A DNA stretch of 56,444 nucleotides from Chloroflexota bacterium (lineage in GTDB: Bacteria > Desulfobacterota > Binatia > UBA9968), in the NCBI GenBank assembly GCA_050257635.1, contig JBLMXG010000117.1, positions 1-56,444 on the forward strand. Direction: 5' to 3'. Below, piece by piece: positions 9,399 to 33,808 of the stretch. The notes below the pieces were generated by a model. That model did not search any database, was not told the DNA's origin, and saw only the letters and a program-made list of their open reading frames with translations. Position numbers and translations under genes: made by a program. How positions within the stretch are numbered: position 1 is the first letter of the stretch; the number at the start of each line of letters is the position of its first letter.

Positions 9399-9941
9399 AT
9401 GGCGATCGCTCACGACACGAAACCAAGATCGAATCTCACCGAAGAGCCACAGGCGAATGCTATCACCTGTGGCTCTTTCGCTTTCGAGGATGGCTTGCGA
9501 TTTCGGCCGATAACCGTCGCCGACTTAGATGACATCATGGTTATCGAAAGGAACTCGTTCCCCGTGCCCTGGAGTGTCAACTTTTTTCGCCAAGAACTGC
9601 AGGTTGCCTGTGCTCGTTCGGTTCTTGCTGAGTCCGATGGCAAGATCATCGGGTACGTTCTCTTCTGGTTATTGCCGGGGGCTATCGATGTCCACAACAT
9701 CGCGGTGCACGTCGGCTATCGGCGCCGCGGTATTGCACGCATGCTTTTGAGCCGCGTGGTGGGGGAAGCGAGGCGGCGCGCCATATATCGAGTTTTACTT
9801 GAAGTACGCCGTTCTAACTTCCCGGCTCAAAAGCTTTATGAAGCGCTCGGATTTAAGACAACCGGAATTCGCAAGGGTTATTATTCGGATAACGGCGAAG
9901 ATGCCCTAGCGATGACACTTGAGTTAAACAGCGTGAGTTGA
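9399..9941 (+). CDS. rimI: Ribosomal protein S18 alanine N-acetyltransferase
   Basis: IERNSFPVPWS, NIAV...RRRGIA, LEVRRSN..AQKLY..LGF...GIRKGYY...EDA; start uncertain. Confidence 0.88.
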   Translation: MAIAHDTKPRSNLTEEPQANAITCGSFAFEDGLRFRPITVADLDDIMVIERNSFPVPWSVNFFRQELQVACARSVLAESDGKIIGYVLFWLLPGAIDVHNIAVHVGYRRRGIARMLLSRVVGEARRRAIYRVLLEVRRSNFPAQKLYEALGFKTTGIRKGYYSDNGEDALAMTLELNSVS

Positions 9942-10043
9942 GCTTCAAAGCTAAAAAACGTACTAAGCAGGGCTTAATATTTTATGTTTAATCAATTGAA
10001 ACATCTATAGAATCCGTAATTATCTTCCCCTAATCACGTTCCC

Positions 10044-10075
10044 TTGACGGCCTCTGCCCGTCTGTTGTATATATT
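10044..10075 (+). promoter_or_regulatory. Putative sigma-70 promoter upstream of carD
   Basis: TTGACG at 10044, AT-rich TATATATT -10 region at 10068-10075. Confidence 0.5.
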
Positions 10076-10094
10076 AAAAGTTAGTTAAGCGAAT

Positions 10095-10127
10095 TTAGCG
10101 GTCTGCTTTTTGACCGCTAATTTTTTT
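10095..10127 (+). terminator. Intrinsic terminator-like hairpin between rimI and carD
   Basis: TTAGCGGTC / GACCGCTAA perfect 9-bp stem followed by T7. Confidence 0.6.
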
Positions 10128-10323
10128 GAAGGTTTCCAGCATCGGATGAACGAGAGCGGAATGATTGATACGCCCCAAAGCCAGCCGCTGACTAATCTGC
10201 CGTCCATCCGTTCAACCTTCCAACAGCCCTTCTCGTACGACCTTCCACATTTCCTTAATTTCCATCGACAGCCGTTCAGATTTGCTAAAACGGGCGACAG
10301 TTTCGATTTAGGAGGGAATTTCT

Positions 10324-10806
10324 ATGTTTAAAGTCGGCGAGAAGGTAGTTTATCCGGCCCACGGGGTCGGCGAGATTGAAGCGATACGATCCCATGTCAT
10401 CTCTGGCACCGAGAAAAAATTTTATATGCTGCGAATTCTCGAGACCGACATGAAGATCATGATTCCGATCGACAACGTTGAATCCGTGGGATTGCGAAAA
10501 ATTATCGACCGCGCCATGGTGACGAAAGTCTACAAAGTGCTGCGCCAAAAGAAAGTCGAAACGGACCAACAGACATGGAACCGTCGCTATCGGGAATATA
10601 CCGAGAAGATTAAGACCGGTTCCATCCTGGAAATCGCAAAAGTTTTACGGGATCTTTTTGTCCTCAAGGGCGACAAGGAGCTTTCCTTCGGTGAAAGGAA
10701 AATGCTCGACACGGCGCGGAACCTTTTGGTCAAGGAACTTTCCATCGCGCGCTCCCATTCCGAAGAGAAGATCATGGAGGAACTGCGCCATATCTTTACC
10801 CATTGA
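10324..10806 (+). CDS. carD: CarD/CdnL family RNA polymerase-binding transcription factor
   Basis: FKVGEKVVYPAHGVG, QTWNRRYRE, LSFGERKMLD; classic carD-ispD synteny. Confidence 0.93.
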   Translation: MFKVGEKVVYPAHGVGEIEAIRSHVISGTEKKFYMLRILETDMKIMIPIDNVESVGLRKIIDRAMVTKVYKVLRQKKVETDQQTWNRRYREYTEKIKTGSILEIAKVLRDLFVLKGDKELSFGERKMLDTARNLLVKELSIARSHSEEKIMEELRHIFTH

Positions 10807-10831
10807 GATTCGTCCATTGCGCTTGAACGTG

Positions 10832-10869
10832 AAAAAAGCCGGGAGCGTCACTCTCGGCTTTTTTATTTT
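10832..10869 (+). terminator. Intrinsic terminator between carD and ispD (possibly bidirectional)
   Basis: AAAAAAGCCGGGAG-loop-CTCTCGGCTTTTTT. Confidence 0.7.
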
Positions 10870-10878
10870 GAATAACCC

Positions 10879-11577
10879 ATGCGAGTAACCGCTATCATCC
10901 TTGCCGCTGGCAAAGGCCGCCGTATGGGCGGAGAAATTTCCAAAGCCTACCTACCCATCGCCGGTCGGCCACTGGTGTTACGGACTTTGGATCGCATTTT
11001 CTCTGCGCGGACGATCGATAACGTCGTTTTGGTCATTGCCGCTGGTGAGTTTGCCCGCTGTGAGGCTATGCTGCGCGGCGATGTTGAGCTTCGAGACCGG
11101 CGCTGGAGTTTGCAGAGCGGCGGCGCAACCCGCCAGCAGTCGGCAAAGCGCGGTCTCGAACGGGTCGAGTCCGACAGCGATATCGTGGTCATTCATGACG
11201 GCGCCCGTCCCTTCGCTTCCGCTGCGCTGATTGATCGGTGTGTCGAGGCCGCGGCGGAAAAAGGCGCCGTCGTCGCCGGTCTGCCCGTGCGCGATACCAT
11301 CAAGATCGTCTCGGCGAATGGTTTGATTCAAGCTACCCCCGAGCGTAGCGGCTTATGGGAAATACAAACGCCTCAGGCGTTCCGACGAGAATTGATTGTC
11401 GCGGCGCACGAGCGAGCGGAGCGCGAGGGTGCGCAAGCAACCGACGATGCGACGGTCGTGGAGCGCGTTGGAGAACCCGTCTACGTTCTTGAAGGGGAAC
11501 GAAACAACTTTAAAATCACCTTGCCTGAAGATATTTGGCTCGCCGAAACTTTGATCCGCGAAGGTAGAATTTCCTAG
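10879..11577 (+). CDS. ispD: 2-C-methyl-D-erythritol 4-phosphate cytidylyltransferase
   Basis: LAAGKGRRMG, GGATRQQS, IHDGARPF, QTPQAF, TDDA, NFKIT. Confidence 0.95.
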   Translation: MRVTAIILAAGKGRRMGGEISKAYLPIAGRPLVLRTLDRIFSARTIDNVVLVIAAGEFARCEAMLRGDVELRDRRWSLQSGGATRQQSAKRGLERVESDSDIVVIHDGARPFASAALIDRCVEAAAEKGAVVAGLPVRDTIKIVSANGLIQATPERSGLWEIQTPQAFRRELIVAAHERAEREGAQATDDATVVERVGEPVYVLEGERNNFKITLPEDIWLAETLIREGRIS

Positions 11578-28661: not shown

Positions 28662-29065
28662 GGCGCCAACGAGCTTTACTGCGAGCAAGGTATTTCTCAC
28701 AACACGGCGCGTCCATGAATATGAGGCTATTGGAATGAAACGAAAAAGACAATCGCTAACGTTGGTGCGCAAAGAATTTCCACCAACCGAAGGTTTCGCG
28801 CGAGCCGCGAATCCTGTCAGATCGAGCGGTCGCGGTTTTTCGAGTTATTGCCGATTGAGTTTCTGATGGGCTCTGGTTCTTCCCGTTTTCTCCGTAGGCC
28901 CAGGAAAAGCCCGGCCTGGCTCAAGCCGCCGGTCCGATGTGAGCAATTGCCCGTCATTGCCCGGATTATCCTTCGGAGCTGGAGATGGATAGAAGGTTTT
29001 GATATCCGAAGGACAGTGAAAGGAGGCGGTTTGCAGAGCTGATTCAAAAGAAGGCGCCGCGAAGA

Positions 29066-30184
29066 TCAAGATTTCTTTATTATCTTTCCGTAAATTTGTC
29101 TGGCGTCGGCGAGGTTCTGATAAACTACTTCGCCTTTTTGAGTCGCCTCGTTTTTGCGAACAGCTTTCACAACCGACCAGAGCGCAATTGGCAGCAACAT
29201 CAGCAACAGGAAGAGGAGCGAGAGCCAGATCCCGAGTTGAAAAATTCCTCCTCGAATCGAGGAGCTGCCGTCCGAACCGGCGTTACTGGTATTTCCATTT
29301 GTCGGTTCAGCTCGAAGAGAGACGCTGCCGCCTGCGCTACTGTCCGAGCGGACACCGGCGGATACGTTGCCGGAATGATCCATCGATCCGCGATTCGAAC
29401 CGCCGTTTGGGACCCCATCTGAGCTTCCACCCGACCCATCAGCAGATCCTCCAGCGGAGCCGTTGCCACCTCCCGTCCCGCCACTGGATCCAGCGCCTGA
29501 CCCGCTGCCGCTACCACTACCACCTGAGCGGCCGCCGGTGCCGCCAGCGGAACCACCGCTTGAACTGCCGACAAAACCACCACCCGAACCGCCGCCTGAA
29601 GAACTACCGACTGAAGCGTTAGGCGAATTACCGCTGCTACCGCCACCTGAGCCCCCTCCCGCCCCGCCATTGGACCCAACGCCGGAGCTGCTGCTACCGC
29701 TACCAGCGGTGCCGCCGCCAGAGCCGCCACTGGAACCACCGCTCGAGCCACCGACAAAACCACCACCCGAACCGCCGCCGGACCCCCCAGTGGACCCGCC
29801 AAAGGAACCCCCGCCACTGCTTCCGCCCGACCCACCTGCCGAGCCGCCAGTCGAGCCACCTGAGCCGCCACCAGTGCCGCCGCCACCGCCGCTATTTCCC
29901 CCTGTGCCACCGCCCGAACCGCCACCTGTGCTGCCAGCGGAGCCAGTTCCTATACCCGAGCCACCGGAGTCCTGACCTGATCCTGAGCCAGACCCACCGC
30001 TCGTCGTTGAAATGGAGTTGCCGATGTCGTTCCAAGCGGTTTGTAAAGCTAGCCGGAAATTTGTATCGCGGATGCCTAACCAAAACACGAGAGCGACTAA
30101 AAGCACGAGAATCGAGTATTCAACTAACCCCTGGCCTCTCTGGTTCAAAGCGACTTGATTACTTGTGCGAGCAAGGATGTGCAT
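29066..30184 (-). CDS. Flp/type IVc pilin-like protein fused to a Gly/Ser-rich linker and a C-terminal transmembrane anchor
   Basis: NQRG|QGLVEY prepilin motif with E+5/Y+6, hydrophobic helix, about 250 aa GS-rich tract, TM IFQLGIWLSLLFLLLMLLPIALWSVV then basic tail; start 30184 (or 30196). Confidence 0.75.
   Translation of the reverse strand: MHILARTSNQVALNQRGQGLVEYSILVLLVALVFWLGIRDTNFRLALQTAWNDIGNSISTTSGGSGSGSGQDSGGSGIGTGSAGSTGGGSGGGTGGNSGGGGGTGGGSGGSTGGSAGGSGGSSGGGSFGGSTGGSGGGSGGGFVGGSSGGSSGGSGGGTAGSGSSSSGVGSNGGAGGGSGGGSSGNSPNASVGSSSGGGSGGGFVGSSSGGSAGGTGGRSGGSGSGSGSGAGSSGGTGGGNGSAGGSADGSGGSSDGVPNGGSNRGSMDHSGNVSAGVRSDSSAGGSVSLRAEPTNGNTSNAGSDGSSSIRGGIFQLGIWLSLLFLLLMLLPIALWSVVKAVRKNEATQKGEVVYQNLADARQIYGKIIKKS
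29568..29779. repeat. Identical 29-bp direct repeat within the Gly/Ser tract
   Basis: CCGACAAAACCACCACCCGAACCGCCGCC at 29568-29596 and 29751-29779, 183 bp (61 codons) apart. Confidence 0.9.
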
Positions 30185-30212
30185 AGAAGTGTCCATTCGG
30201 CACCGATGAGTG

Positions 30213-30228
30213 AGCAACTTACAGGCCA
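30213..30228 (-). promoter_or_regulatory. Putative sigma-54 (-24/-12) promoter for the pilin-fusion gene
   Basis: Minus strand TGGCCTGTAAGTTGCT, GG-N10-GC spacing, about 30 nt upstream of ATG 30184. Confidence 0.65.
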
Positions 30229-30644
30229 AATCACATGTTCCCCCGTGGGATAAAATGGGCATTTCTTTCGCGGGATAAAAGGAATATCTGCGGAAAGAAG
30301 ACCTGATCCATGTGGTTCCGGGCGTTGGCGCCACAATCTCCCGGTTGACATATAGTGACAACGATGACACAGGCAAAATTCTTGGCGCGAATGCTCTATG
30401 ATTCCTTTTTTCGATCTGTGTTTGGCACAGCTCCCACCAACGTGCGCGATTGAGGCTGCACTCTCAAAAGTTTATCCGGTAATTCTTTTGCCGCCAGCTT
30501 CAGGGTGCTCCGCAAAATGGCTGGTAGCCAATCAACCGCGAAACAGCCCTACTACGCGATTTTTGACCCCTTAGGAAGAGTTATGCTGGGTGAGCACACG
30601 ACGTCACCGTCGACGGCTTGAGCGGCATGGAGCTGAGATAGCGC

Positions 30645-31034
30645 TTAAATTCCGCCGATGCCTGCTGCGAGCGAATCGGTAATGTCTGAGTCGTCGGTGA
30701 AAAGGCGCTCGGTGCCGCCCAAGAACGGACGCGAGCAGCCCGAGTTGCAATAGCCGGAAACCGCGGTCCTTATCTGTTGAGCGCGAATCATATCGCCGAT
30801 GGCGGAGGCGATGCGCGCATTCTCGCCCGGTGAGTCTGGCGGAGTTACTGTTCGGATGGTTGAATGCTCCGCCAGCGTATTCTGCACTTTCACTTCAAAA
30901 CCAACTTCAATCGGACCGTTTATAAGCAACTGCTCCCGTACGGGTTTTAAACGGATGGCCCAGGACCAGGACGACAAAGCGCATACGCTCACCCAGGTAA
31001 AAATAGACGTCAAGATATAAAACCAACGGATCAT
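30645..31034 (-). pseudogene. Short or degenerate ClpP/crotonase-like periplasmic protein (COG3904-like)
   Basis: DSPGE...AIGDMIR...T.VSGYCNSGCSRPFLGG.ER resembles NSPGG...CASAC..F.GG..R but is degenerate and ends early. Confidence 0.45.
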
Positions 31035-31439: not shown

Positions 31440-32486
31440 TTACGCCGCGCCGCCTCCACCGCGCCGCAGTGCTACGTCGGTGATCCAGGCGAGTATGAGC
31501 ATTGCCGCGATCAGGCTCACGAGAAATAGCATGAGGCTTCCCCATTCGCCGCGCACGGGAATTTTGGACGGATCGAACCATTTGAGAAGTTCGGTAAATT
31601 GGACCCACTGGCGGGCGATAGCGTTGGCAGCGAGCACGACGAGCTGTATGACCACGAGCGCGACGCCCTTGGCGCGGGTAGGATTGCGCCAGTAAGCCAA
31701 GGCGAGAAGCGCACCGGCAATCATGGCGCTGCCGGTGGCACCGAGCCACAGGTCCGGTAGTTTTTGCATGACCGAGGCGGCATACATGGCGCCGGCCGCA
31801 CCATAAATGAGCGTGCCGAGAAGATAGAGCAGCAACAAGCTGCGCGCGGCGTTTTTATAAAGCGCTTGTGTGCTGAAGCATTCGGCGTCGAGGACGAGGT
31901 ATGCGGCCAGCGTGCCGAAGGCCATGCCGACAACCATGGAAAAACGCAGGAACACTTCGAGATCGAGATGGAGATGAAGCCCGTAGGTCGCGCCGCCTCG
32001 ATTGGAGCCCAGAAAAATACTCGTCCAATCCTGGGGATTGGCCGTGAGTGTCATGGCGGAAGAGAACATGAGTCCGATCAGAAATAATAGAATCGTTGCA
32101 GTGAGCGCACCGGCGATGCGGAACTTGCCGAAGCTCGCCAGGTAAACGGCGTAGTACGCGACGAGTAATAACGGGATGATGAAGAACCAGAACCAGGCTT
32201 GGAGAATTGTTGCCGGATAGAAAAACTGCGGATAGATCGTCTGCAAAAATAAAAGCGGCACAATGCCGGCGTTGATTCCGAAGGCGAGGAAAAAGGGCAG
32301 GGCGTGAAAGAGCCGTTCGGCCACCGCGGGTTTGGAGCGCAGCAGATACAGGGCGGTGGGCAGGCCGGCCACCCAGAGATTCATGAAGATCAGGTGCAGG
32401 AAAAATCCGAAGACCTTGAGCGCGAGCAAGATCCACAGAGGCACCGGCAGTCCCAACGGATCAGGTGGGGGAATCAGCGGTATCAT
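31440..32486 (-). CDS. Multi-pass membrane protein, divergent CydA-like partner subunit
   Basis: FFLHLIFMN (helix-1 His), GINAGIVPLLFLQ, about 9 TMs; 4-bp overlap with upstream cydA-like gene. Confidence 0.65.
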   Translation of the reverse strand: MIPLIPPPDPLGLPVPLWILLALKVFGFFLHLIFMNLWVAGLPTALYLLRSKPAVAERLFHALPFFLAFGINAGIVPLLFLQTIYPQFFYPATILQAWFWFFIIPLLLVAYYAVYLASFGKFRIAGALTATILLFLIGLMFSSAMTLTANPQDWTSIFLGSNRGGATYGLHLHLDLEVFLRFSMVVGMAFGTLAAYLVLDAECFSTQALYKNAARSLLLLYLLGTLIYGAAGAMYAASVMQKLPDLWLGATGSAMIAGALLALAYWRNPTRAKGVALVVIQLVVLAANAIARQWVQFTELLKWFDPSKIPVRGEWGSLMLFLVSLIAAMLILAWITDVALRRGGGGAA

Positions 32487-33808
32487 TGCGCGTGCGCCTC
32501 ATGGTTGAGCTCCACCAGATAGGCCGAGAGCGCAGCGCGCTCGGCGTCGTTCCCAAGCCAGGGCGGCATGGCGGGATTGGTGCGATGGAGGTGGCGAACC
32601 GCATCGTCGATCAATTCCGGCGTCCATGGATAAATTATCGGCGTGATGCCGTTATAGCCGTAAAAGGCATGGCAGGAGCCGCAGTGATACTGGAAAATCC
32701 CTGCGCCGCTGGCGACCAAACTGGTAGGTTCGATCGCCGTGCCGTCAGTTTTCTTGGCCTCGTGTTCAAGATGAGATTTTAGCCAGCGGCTGTGGGCGAT
32801 GAAGCCATCGCGCTGTAGCGTTGTGATTCGTTCGACTAAAACCCCGGGAGCGATCAAATAGTTTTCGATTCGATAAGGTTTGCGCGCGCCTTCGCGGACG
32901 AATTCACCGGTCGTGGTGGCAACCGCGCCGGCGAGGAGGAGCAGCAGGGCGCTCGGCGGCGTGATCCAGCGCGCGCCGGAGATCATGCCCCAGGCCAGCG
33001 CAGCGATCACCACGAGGGAGACGGAAAAATTGAGCGCGGTCATCAGCAGGAGAATCGGCGCGCGCATCATGTTGAGCCTGGCGTTTGCGGGCGTGACAAT
33101 CATGTACCACACGGCGCCCAGGGCGATGAGCGCCATTCCGGCGAGCGCCCACTGGGACACGGCGCGAATGACATGGTCTTTTACTCTTGTGCGGTCCGAC
33201 TGAAACGAGGCGTGAAAGGCGAAGCCAAGAGCAGCGATGACGATGGAGCCGCCGGTGCGCAGCAGCGTTTGCGGCAAGAACGATGGATTGAAAAACGCCG
33301 CGAAGAAATTCTGCTCTTTGGTCCAGCCACCCGCGGTGAGCATGAACGCGGTGATGCCGGTGATCAGCACCAGGCTGACCCAAGCCGCGCCGGCGTAAAT
33401 CCAACCCAGGATAACATGCTCGCGCGGCGTTGCCCGGTCCCAGAGATAGTAAAAGGCGAAGGCCGCGGCGATTTCGACGACAAAGGCGGTCCATTCCGTC
33501 GCCCAGCCAAAGACAAAAATGTGAATCAGCGCGCTGGTCGTCTCCGGACTGGCGAGACCGATGGTCCACCAAATGCCGATGCCGGTGACGGCGCCGAAGA
33601 CGACGGTGATAAGGATGAAGAAGCGCGCCAGTCCGCGGAGATAGGCGAGGGTTTCGGCGTTGCGATCGCGGTGGGCGCGGCGGACCAGATCGGCGAGCAG
33701 GATGCCGGCGCCGACGGCGAATTGGGCGACGATGACATGGGGCACCGCGATCAGCGGAATCAGCATCGGCGCAGTCAAGAATGGAACGTACCAGAAGGGG
33801 AATTCCAT
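32483..33808 (-). CDS. Cytochrome bd oxidase subunit I-like protein fused to a C-terminal c-type cytochrome
   Basis: PHVIVAQFAVG, GAVTG, EWTAFVVE, FFNPS, EFVREGARKPY; C-terminal CGSCH and PAMPP. Confidence 0.82.
   Translation of the reverse strand: MEFPFWYVPFLTAPMLIPLIAVPHVIVAQFAVGAGILLADLVRRAHRDRNAETLAYLRGLARFFILITVVFGAVTGIGIWWTIGLASPETTSALIHIFVFGWATEWTAFVVEIAAAFAFYYLWDRATPREHVILGWIYAGAAWVSLVLITGITAFMLTAGGWTKEQNFFAAFFNPSFLPQTLLRTGGSIVIAALGFAFHASFQSDRTRVKDHVIRAVSQWALAGMALIALGAVWYMIVTPANARLNMMRAPILLLMTALNFSVSLVVIAALAWGMISGARWITPPSALLLLLAGAVATTTGEFVREGARKPYRIENYLIAPGVLVERITTLQRDGFIAHSRWLKSHLEHEAKKTDGTAIEPTSLVASGAGIFQYHCGSCHAFYGYNGITPIIYPWTPELIDDAVRHLHRTNPAMPPWLGNDAERAALSAYLVELNHEAHAQ

Follow-up and report, generated by a model that had tools for sequence, protein, structure and literature searches.

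What becomes of a Flp pilin when its reading frame does not stop where such pilins stop? The question is raised by one gene in a 56,444-nucleotide stretch of DNA (contig JBLMXG010000117.1 of assembly GCA_050257635.1, deposited as Chloroflexota bacterium and placed by GTDB in Desulfobacterota, Binatia, UBA9968). The whole stretch is called the window below; the genome holding it is called G000, and other G numbers denote related genomes. Tad/Flp pilins are described as minimal in the accessible part of PMC10710030, with mature subunits of 40–60 residues and no C-terminal domain. The gene product analysed here starts as a Flp-like prepilin, runs on through a Gly/Ser linker of ~250 aa, and ends with a second hydrophobic helix and a basic tail. 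As judged by sequence comparison, it is best read as a sigma-54-controlled Flp paralogue fused via a disordered Gly/Ser chain to a family-specific second transmembrane (TM) helix and a conserved tail. An earlier account of the same DNA, made without database searches (the sequence-only reading), had called the protein a doubly anchored pilin. This description agrees with our results, as the Flp module, the Gly/Ser linker, and the second anchor form an architecture common to the homologues.

The open reading frame (ORF) spans 29066..30376 on the minus strand and is open for 436 aa when counted from a TTG. An alignment of five orthologous upstream regions indicated that the start conserved among orthologues is ATG 30184, from which the protein reads MHILARTSNQVALNQRG followed by QGLVEY; an alternative ATG at 30196 (376 aa) was specific to the window. 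The parts of the gene are given below.

29066..30184 (−), coding sequence of the putative tethered Flp-like pilin, 372 aa with the stop at 29066–29068, based on the ORF and the start conserved among orthologues.
30213..30228 (−), sigma-54-type −24/−12 element TGGCCTGTAAGTTGCT, with GG at 30227–30226 and GC at 30215–30214, ending ~29 nt upstream of ATG 30184.
30192..30194 (−), Shine-Dalgarno-like GGA, 8–10 nt upstream of ATG 30184, invariant in the five-orthologue alignment.
30134..30184 (−), putative prepilin leader MHILARTSNQVALNQRG, residues 1–17, the last of which is the invariant Gly; cleavage is predicted.
29999..30133 (−), predicted mature Flp-like module, residues 18–62, comprising QGLVEY, a hydrophobic helix (TM1), and the amphipathic helix LQTAWNDIGNSIS.
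29246..29998 (−), disordered Gly/Ser linker, residues 63–313, based on composition, predicted local distance difference test (pLDDT), repeats, and length variation.
29168..29245 (−), second TM helix IFQLGIWLSLLFLLLMLLPIALWSVV, residues 314–339, based on hydropathy and lying within the AlphaFold2 helix 311–371.
29069..29167 (−), conserved tail KAVRKNEATQKGEVVYQNLADARQIYGKIIKKS, predicted to be cytoplasmic, residues 340–372, based on conservation and the ratio of nonsynonymous to synonymous substitution rates (dN/dS).

AlphaFold2 with a four-orthologue alignment predicted helices at residues 3–39, 41–57, and 311–371 and left residues 58–309 unstructured (pLDDT <50). A similar layout was predicted for a shorter homologue, with helices at residues 10–33, 36–48, 140–176, and 180–195.

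The long frame might in principle be an artefact: either GC-rich repeats happen to stay open behind a short Flp gene, or a repeat was assembled wrongly. The opposite strand and the other frames are likewise open over the repeat, contigs frequently break within the linker, and two of the nine best database matches leave the frame inside it. These points are opposed by contigs from four runs of four studies, which cover all 30 bins of 28900–30400 in three runs and 27 of the 30 in the fourth. They showed no insertion, deletion, or joint, and none of their 12 substitutions in the ORF makes a stop. The four runs are labelled soil metagenome or metagenome, and one may be the source sample; in run X5, the whole stretch was spanned by overlapping pieces and not by any single contig. 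Hence, the stop after the pilin domain and the misassembled repeat that a read-level check might have revealed were both absent from these contigs. Furthermore, the C-terminal module lies in frame in 15 complete homologues despite very different linkers. Its dN/dS against the syntenic orthologue of G014 was 0.15, and that of the pilin module was 0.21. It is chiefly because the C-terminal helix and tail stay in frame behind linkers differing in length and sequence that we regard the long frame as real, and an artefact is hardly credible. We concluded that the gene is genuine and that both end modules are under purifying selection. Among the 21 sequencing runs listed as holding the sequence, there was no RNA data set.

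Homologues with a pilin module, a low-complexity chain, and a C-terminal TM helix were found by several searches. Judging from the predicted proteins, the long-form architecture is kept in 15 complete homologues (194–448 aa, some of which may be from the same species) of at least two lineages. A 66-aa N-terminal query gave matches in 27 of 61 related genomes, comprising 26 of the 36 from the same family and none of the 24 from the two other families of the order; most were frames of 60–97 aa. Full-length orthologues were identified in G014 (447 aa, syntenic with the window) and G013 (415 aa), and the long forms of G010 and G028 are cut by contig ends, within or just past the linker. A 65-aa C-terminal query against 90 genomes of the family recovered G000, G014, and G013. 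A weak match in the same search (E 8.5e-4) lies in G091 and has an internal TGA.

An exhaustive profile search with the long-form N-terminus among 1.84 billion representatives yielded 197 proteins at E≤0.001, of which the nine best are fragments running on into Gly/Ser; P0145 (201 aa) is a complete, distant member. Two of the nine, the metagenomic fragments P0008 and P0009, lose the frame in the linker, where they switch from the Gly/Ser frame to an Ala/Val/Arg-rich alternative frame. This switch is likely due to frameshift errors or to real slippage in the repeat. Among longer sequences, a profile of the C-terminal module identified 13 proteins in two groups, termed clade A and clade B. Clade A resembles the window protein (e.g., P0158, 314 aa). 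Members of clade B are 194–254 aa as called; their linker is shorter and more polar, and their tail reads SEISFQGLQADQIVAKIKETA. Genome G513 carries one clade-B gene on a 604-kb contig (locus L052); a second member in G513 has 448 aa, and that of its relative G515 has 324 aa. Scanning of metagenome contigs added nine loci: four complete (252–414 aa), one open at the 5′ end with the pilin motif present, and four truncated 5′. Nothing was returned when a word-indexed protein collection was searched at near lengths with the first 70 or the last 65 aa, and the orthologues are evidently missing from it at those lengths.

Is the N-terminal part a pilin? The sequence NQRG/QGLVEYSILVLLVALVFWLG (the slash marks the predicted cleavage site) shows a leader ending in Gly, the xxxxEY motif, and a hydrophobic helix, by which Flp/Fap pilins are recognised. 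Gly17 at −1, Gln18 at +1, Glu at +5, Tyr at +6, and a Trp in the amphipathic helix were invariant in 22 of 22 relatives. The complete Flp-type prepilin proposed in the sequence-only reading was thus recovered with its leader, G/QGLVEY, and both helices. Thirteen of the 22 aligned relatives matched Flp_Fap at E≤1 (best 3.7e-5), and a profile of the subfamily matched the solved Tad pilins of Caulobacter, 8u1k (E 1.1e-4) and 8u2b (E 1e-3), over positions 17–58. A further Flp_Fap match, at C24, belongs to a SulP-type transporter and is spurious.

The short relatives are typical Flp-type prepilins of 57–64 aa, and two short Flp classes occur in the genus: a tad-linked class of 64 aa and an orphan class (class 2) of 62 aa with a C-terminal Cys pair. 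Orphan class-2 pilins are the nearest relatives of the clade-A long forms (44–56% identity); that of G000 is encoded at C210:5435-5623 (−), and the two classes were recognised from this gene and loci L020–L044. Over 44 mature residues, the long-form pilin modules are 45% identical to the resident short Flp and 27–39% identical to long forms of the other lineage, which is suggestive only. In a tree of the N-terminal domain (47 columns), the clade-A long forms branched within the class-2 short pilins, apart from the remaining long forms. Two unpublished genomes contributed to these comparisons: G005 supplied two of the ten class-2 sequences (loci L022 and L043), which enter the sigma-54 count, the tree, and alignment A1, and G035 supplied one row of alignment A1 and the tree (locus L040). 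No conclusion depends on G005 or G035 alone. On this sequence evidence, the N-terminal module is a Flp pilin by descent, paralogous to the Flp pilins of the organism. Since it keeps the positions invariant among its paralogues together with the constraint and the promoter type, it probably still does what pilins do and is not merely an anchor.

The promoter was the next line of evidence. A lone sigma-54 match is not above chance, as 14 sites with two or fewer mismatches were present in the window against 26.7 expected. The element GG-N10-GC with TTGCTC was invariant in five of five clade-A upstream regions, and the surrounding intergenic DNA had diverged. The three members of the other lineage carry TGGCACGCGAGTTGCG, TGGCACACCCCTTGCT, and TGGTACGCAAGTTGCT at −47 to −69, and the four metagenomic long-form genes with upstream DNA have the element at −44 to −47. 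Accordingly, the element that the sequence-only reading placed just upstream of the gene was present in 12 of 12 long forms having upstream DNA, in two of them near the canonical TGGCAC-N5-TTGC. Unlike the lone match, this conservation far exceeds chance. The loose pattern also preceded 10 of 10 class-2 and 6 of 6 tad-linked short genes, although by chance it occurs in 5% of random 120-nt and 14% of random 333-nt windows of the genome, and the genes counted are related and not independent trials.

When the upstream regions of 24 Flp-type genes (L003, L015–L057) were compared, each class had its own form: TGGCAT-N5-CTGC in the tad-linked, CGGCAC/T-N5-TTGCT in the orphan, and GGCCT-N5-TTGCTC in the clade-A long genes. 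By this comparison, all three Flp classes of the lineage carry sigma-54-type promoters. A palindrome, CCCGR-N-YCGGG, lies ~95 nt upstream of the −24 element in three of five clade-A genes and is degenerate in the window; it is a candidate activator site. A different candidate, GTGACA-N-TGTCAC, was found in 4 of 10 class-2 genes. As these candidate palindromes differ between the classes, separate activators are suggested. The genome encodes rpoN (212 bits) and holds 12 exact canonical TGGCAC-N5-TTGCW sites, which, read from the sequence, are a small, readable sigma-54 regulon; several of the 12 are followed, a few tens of bases on, by a ribosome-binding site and an ATG. A scan of 28700–30700 gave no sigma-70-like promoter.

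We then considered what the linker contributes. The sequence-only reading had described ~250 aa of mostly Gly, Ser, Thr, and Ala with an exact 29-bp duplication. Both features were read again in the sequence: the linker is 72% Gly+Ser, a 256-aa stretch contains 115 Gly, 70 Ser, 13 Ala, and 12 Thr, and the two copies at 29568–29596 and 29751–29779 lie inside a 96-nt repeat of 84% identity. Linkers of the homologues range from 86 to 338 aa and from 34% to 82% Gly+Ser, and their sequence varies too; those of clade B contain 34–44% Gly+Ser. With the linker making up about two thirds of the protein and keeping its composition though not its sequence, the protein might be an envelope polymer unrelated to pili, in which the Flp-like part serves as a signal-anchor and the Gly/Ser loop as a spacer, cushion, or glycosylated brush. 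That the gene is unlinked to pilus genes and occurs in carriers where no TadB/C was found would fit such a polymer. A plain anchor, however, needs neither the invariant G/Q...EY nor a conserved amphipathic helix nor a dN/dS of 0.21, the promoter type is common to the Flp paralogues, and the clade-B linkers are poor examples of a Gly/Ser polymer at 34–44%. We therefore consider a polymer function improbable.

The C-terminal module is the most distinctive part of the family. In order, it follows SSIRGG with the hydrophobic segment of residues 314–339 and then KAVRKNE...KIIKKS, so that the SSSIRGG, TM helix, and basic tail noted from the sequence are all present and the tail corresponds to the conserved 33-aa segment. 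Gly318, Trp320, and Pro332 of the second helix are invariant in clade A. Over 12 C-terminal modules of the two clades, Leu323, Lys340, Glu352, Leu358, Gln363, Ile364, and Ile368 of the window protein are invariant, and the tail carries the signature E-[VI]-x-[YF]-Q-x-L...Q-I-x-x-K-I. This motif is kept in homologues with tails of 21–33 aa. From the positive-inside rule, the tail is probably cytoplasmic. The module matched no Pfam or NCBIfam family, and the ESM Atlas gave no usable match for the whole protein or for the module.

The SSIRGG directly before the helix, present in the window and several clade-A members, had led to the suggestion that the protein is released at the Gly-Gly/TM site. 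The helix and tail would then be a sorting signal like GlyGly-CTERM that is cut off, leaving a pilin with a silk-like chain to decorate the fibre. Three generic rhomboid-family genes in the genome might provide the protease; rhomboid-like genes of this generic kind were found in all 14 control genomes. In the window, the resemblance to the GlyGly-CTERM/rhombosortase system consists only of the Gly-Gly before the C-terminal helix and the basic residues after it. The Gly-Gly is not conserved, being replaced by Lys-Glu in G014 and by Trp-Asn/Trp-Tyr, Ser-Glu, or Ala-Thr in other clades. Where such a signal would have only a few basic residues, the tail has 21–33 aa and a conserved motif; no NCBIfam sorting-signal model matched, and the best score for rhombosortase (TIGR03902) was 55 bits against a cut-off of 84. 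Since the Gly-Gly is not kept, the tail is long, no model matched, and no rhombosortase exceeded its cut-off, the release proposal fails, and we regard a cleaved sorting signal as very improbable.

How could a pilin with these parts work? We propose, tentatively and at somewhat less than an even chance, that the processed pilin enters a type IV filament while remaining covalently tied to the inner membrane, where it would act as a chain terminator, anchor, or brake. The protein would insert as a hairpin whose two ends, the leader and the tail, lie on the cytoplasmic side and whose linker is periplasmic, and prepilin peptidase would cut the 17-residue leader after the invariant Gly. The pilin helix would then be taken up at the base of the growing filament like an ordinary Flp subunit. 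In the Tad pilus of Caulobacter, the outer face of the filament consists of the polar C-terminal parts of its subunits, according to the accessible part of PMC10710030. A C-terminal extension is therefore sterically conceivable and, with the Flp C-terminus on the fibre surface, could trail. As the other end is a membrane helix, the subunit could travel only as far as the tether allows. It would stay tied to the inner membrane, and the fibre would rise only until the tether is taut. By our own arithmetic at 0.36 nm per residue, the contour length of the tether is ~90 nm here and ~30–120 nm across the family. Incorporation would stall or end extension and anchor the fibre to the membrane, and the conserved cytoplasmic tail would take up any load on the fibre. 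In this scheme, we infer the topology, removal of the leader, entry into a filament, the filament concerned, and the terminator or anchor effect. The more general proposition is that type IV filaments have a built-in leashed terminator or anchor subunit, with length set by stochastic chain termination, the fibre held, and load passed to the conserved tail; this we regard as doubtful, though worth stating.

A Tad system would be the natural partner, and the genome was searched for one. As stated in the sequence-only reading, no tad gene is in the window: a Pfam scan of 51 of the 52 predicted ORFs found no tad, type IV pilus, or prepilin-peptidase gene, and the genome-wide matches to PF00482 and PF01478 lie on other contigs. 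TadB and TadC of G000 are encoded on contig C421 (L013, 6567 bases), which is truncated on both sides. They are preceded by three ORFs that correspond in size and position to secretin, TadZ, and ATPase; the contig ends with the open secretin-sized ORF on one side and DUF192 on the other. The sole A24 peptidase found in G000 has 260 aa with CxxC...CxxC and lies beside a type IVa-like pilin gene; we take it to be PilD-like. In G014, a complete tad locus consists of flp (64 aa), a 188-aa A24 peptidase, RcpC/CpaB, three ORFs, TadB, TadC, DUF192, and two TadE genes (44 and 38 bits); the three ORFs were putatively assigned to secretin, TadZ, and ATPase by size and position. Eight further genomes have a short Flp match ~6–7 kb from a TadB orthologue, and G513 has a single short Flp just upstream of a tad-linked A24 peptidase and TadB/C. 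In the genus, 11 of 31 genomes, G005 among them, encode a TadB orthologue. The orthologue at G017:C4:113160-114113 contains six internal stops (5 TGA and 1 TAA), and the tad locus of G017 appears to be decaying, or its assembly to be faulty. Short Flp-like genes also occur in genomes where no TadB/C was found, namely G003, G004 (both of the 64-aa kind), and G013 (both kinds), indicating that orphan Flp pilins occur without a recognisable Tad machine.

Several observations weigh against the tethered-pilin reading. In Pfam, the window protein scored 14.5 bits for Flp_Fap (PF04964), below the cut-off of 32.2, and its best single score, 19.8 bits for Class_IIIsignal (PF04021), was also below the cut-off of 23.7; NCBIfam gave no match. 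TadE (PF07811), the model for TadE/TadF pseudopilins, had no match in the window protein at E≤10 or in the G000 genome at E≤0.1. The suggested hidden Markov model (HMM) search against Flp_Fap and TadE thus failed as a family assignment, and the kinship was recovered by the subfamily profile that reaches 8u1k and 8u2b. The confidence of AlphaFold2 was low for both proteins (pLDDT 43.8 for the window protein and 49.3 for the shorter homologue; predicted template modelling score 0.18–0.19), with no defined packing. A tree joining all long forms in one clade was not rejected by an approximately unbiased (AU) test (p 0.21), and we draw no conclusion on one fusion event versus several. The family is also rare. 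By the long N-terminal frame, the long form occurs in 5 of the 31 genomes of the genus (G000, G014, G013, G010, and G028). Searches for the C-terminal module detected it in 2 of 61 genomes around G513 in the second lineage and in none of 400 other genomes sampled evenly over the phylum. The roughly four-fold spread of linker length argues that the linker is no precise ruler and weakens a measuring role.

The genomic context points the same way. In the loci examined, the gene was never beside tad or other pilus genes, and it had no conserved neighbours except for the synteny with the close relative G014. The assembly of G000 (434 contigs, rated 99.6% complete) lacks the tad-linked peptidase, flp, CpaB, and TadE known from G014. 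TadB/C is present in only two of the five carriers of the genus (G000 and G014); it was not found in G013 (99% complete, ~30 contigs), G010 (88%), or G028 (84%). In G013, no single-domain T2SSF protein was found, and its only A24 peptidase is PilD-like in size; in G028, no A24 peptidase was seen. G013 has a CpaF/TadA-like ATPase (L053, C3:438000-456000, ORF 9671-11077 (+)) that is 71% identical to the tad ATPase of G000; its neighbours are metabolic genes, and TadB/C, secretin, and pilin genes are all lacking in the vicinity. That TadB/C was not found in three of five carriers means either that the partner machine is not pinned to Tad or that the function is independent of pili. The evidence for the Tad machine as partner is therefore mixed. 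The genome check proposed with the sequence-only reading was borne out for TadB/TadC and a prepilin peptidase, and not for the tad-linked peptidase, flp, and TadE or for a rhombosortase above cut-off. Its idea that the protein leashes, measures, or terminates a Tad filament gains from the Tad core in the genome; it loses from the absence of any tad linkage, from TadB/C in two of five carriers, and, as regards measuring, from linkers of 86–338 aa.

The persistence of the gene in genomes where no TadB/C was found would also suit a membrane-resident regulator or sensor that is never extracted. Its pilin-like helix would mix with the Flp pool or dock on the peptidase or platform, and the tail would report or recruit; in other words, it may be a sensor of the pilin pool, or a decoy titrating the machine. 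No part of the protein is more constrained or more specific to the family than the tail, the gene has its own sigma-54 promoter, and the candidate palindrome of clade A is unlike that of the short paralogues. In Caulobacter, membrane pools of a Flp-type pilin are reported as a signal in the accessible part of PMC7196804. The PilA of that report acts from the inner membrane and is a model for such a sensor; as described there, however, it is an ordinary short subunit without tether, second helix, or tail. A sensor also gives no role to the disordered periplasmic linker of 86–338 aa that is kept in every member, and the tail has no recognisable signalling domain or family. Its two Tyr residues are Phe and Val in most clade-B members, and hence there is no conserved phospho-site. 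We consider a regulator or sensor unlikely, though not far-fetched. Together, the sensor or decoy, the envelope polymer, and the cleaved sorting signal keep substantial weight, because uptake into the fibre is only inferred and Tad was not found in three carriers.

The protein was compared with known systems. It resembles the Flp/Fap pilins (Tad, type IVc; PF04964; Caulobacter PilA 8U1K and 8U2B) in the Gly-ended leader, the G/xxxxEY motif, and the hydrophobic followed by an amphipathic helix. Sigma-54-type promoters are likewise common to both, and a paralogue heads the complete tad locus in relatives. In contrast, removal of the leader would leave a mature protein of 355 residues instead of 40–60, and where the short paralogues have a C-terminal loop with two Cys, this protein has the linker, the second TM helix, and the predicted cytoplasmic tail. 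The gene is, in addition, unlinked to tad, and its HMM score is under the cut-off. A second comparison concerns archaeal class III signal peptides (PF04021), whose [KR]G/Q...EY N-terminus likewise carries other parts. Sulfolobus sugar-binding proteins have such class III (pilin-like) signal peptides on non-pilin domains. Unlike these, the protein studied here belongs to a bacterium with TadB/TadC and a PilD-like peptidase, and the attached part is a disordered tether with a second anchor and not a folded domain. The accessible part of a review on archaeal secretion (PMC3387779) describes no protein that has both a pilin signal and an anchor at its C-terminus.

In its proposed logic, the protein resembles the terminator or anchor subunits FimI/PapH of chaperone-usher pili and SpaB of sortase pili, as far as these are described in the accessible parts of PMC12122975, PMC10673952, and bioRxiv 10.1101/2023.02.23.529612. 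There, a minor paralogue is incorporated last, stops polymerisation, and fixes the fibre; here, such a role is proposed. There is no sequence or structural relationship, and those subunits anchor to the usher or the cell wall, whereas a built-in TM helix on a flexible tether would serve here. No Pfam or NCBIfam model, Atlas cluster, or paper was found for a pilin with a second anchor, in a search that left most subscription journals outside.

The surroundings of the gene may be described briefly. One further element was marked downstream:

28902..28928 (−), terminator-like hairpin with a T-run, ~140 nt past the stop, from a consensus scan only; weak evidence.

Six terminator-like hairpins were found in the region against 2.6 expected. 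Just upstream of the pilin gene, a 129-aa ORF at 30645–31034 (−) encodes an N-terminal hydrophobic segment and matches no Pfam or NCBIfam family; it is not kept in the syntenic locus of G014, where a different ORF of 215 aa is found. The gene at 32483–33808 (−) combines a membrane protein resembling cytochrome bd subunit I with a c-type cytochrome domain (Cyt_bd_oxida_I + Cytochrome_CBB3). This gene overlaps by 4 bases with 31440–32486 (−), which encodes a 348-aa multi-helix membrane protein without a Pfam family, and the pair is kept in G014.

What the finding means depends on whether the tethered module enters fibres. For type IV filaments, no terminator or anchor subunit was found in literature from which most subscription journals were absent, and a dedicated subunit that ends, holds, or limits the length of type IV fibres was found in no system in the literature searched. 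In this family, selection maintains a complete Flp module even though it is permanently joined to a second membrane anchor. If the protein stays in the membrane, it would be a new kind of pilin-based regulator. Either way, the helix and tail at the C-terminus make up an undescribed family that is clearly marked by its signature. Should the tethered module enter fibres, termination, anchoring, or force transmission would have a simple physical basis. The protein would then be the type IV counterpart of FimI/PapH and SpaB in role, working by a wholly different principle, and would connect the pilus mechanically with the inside of the cell.

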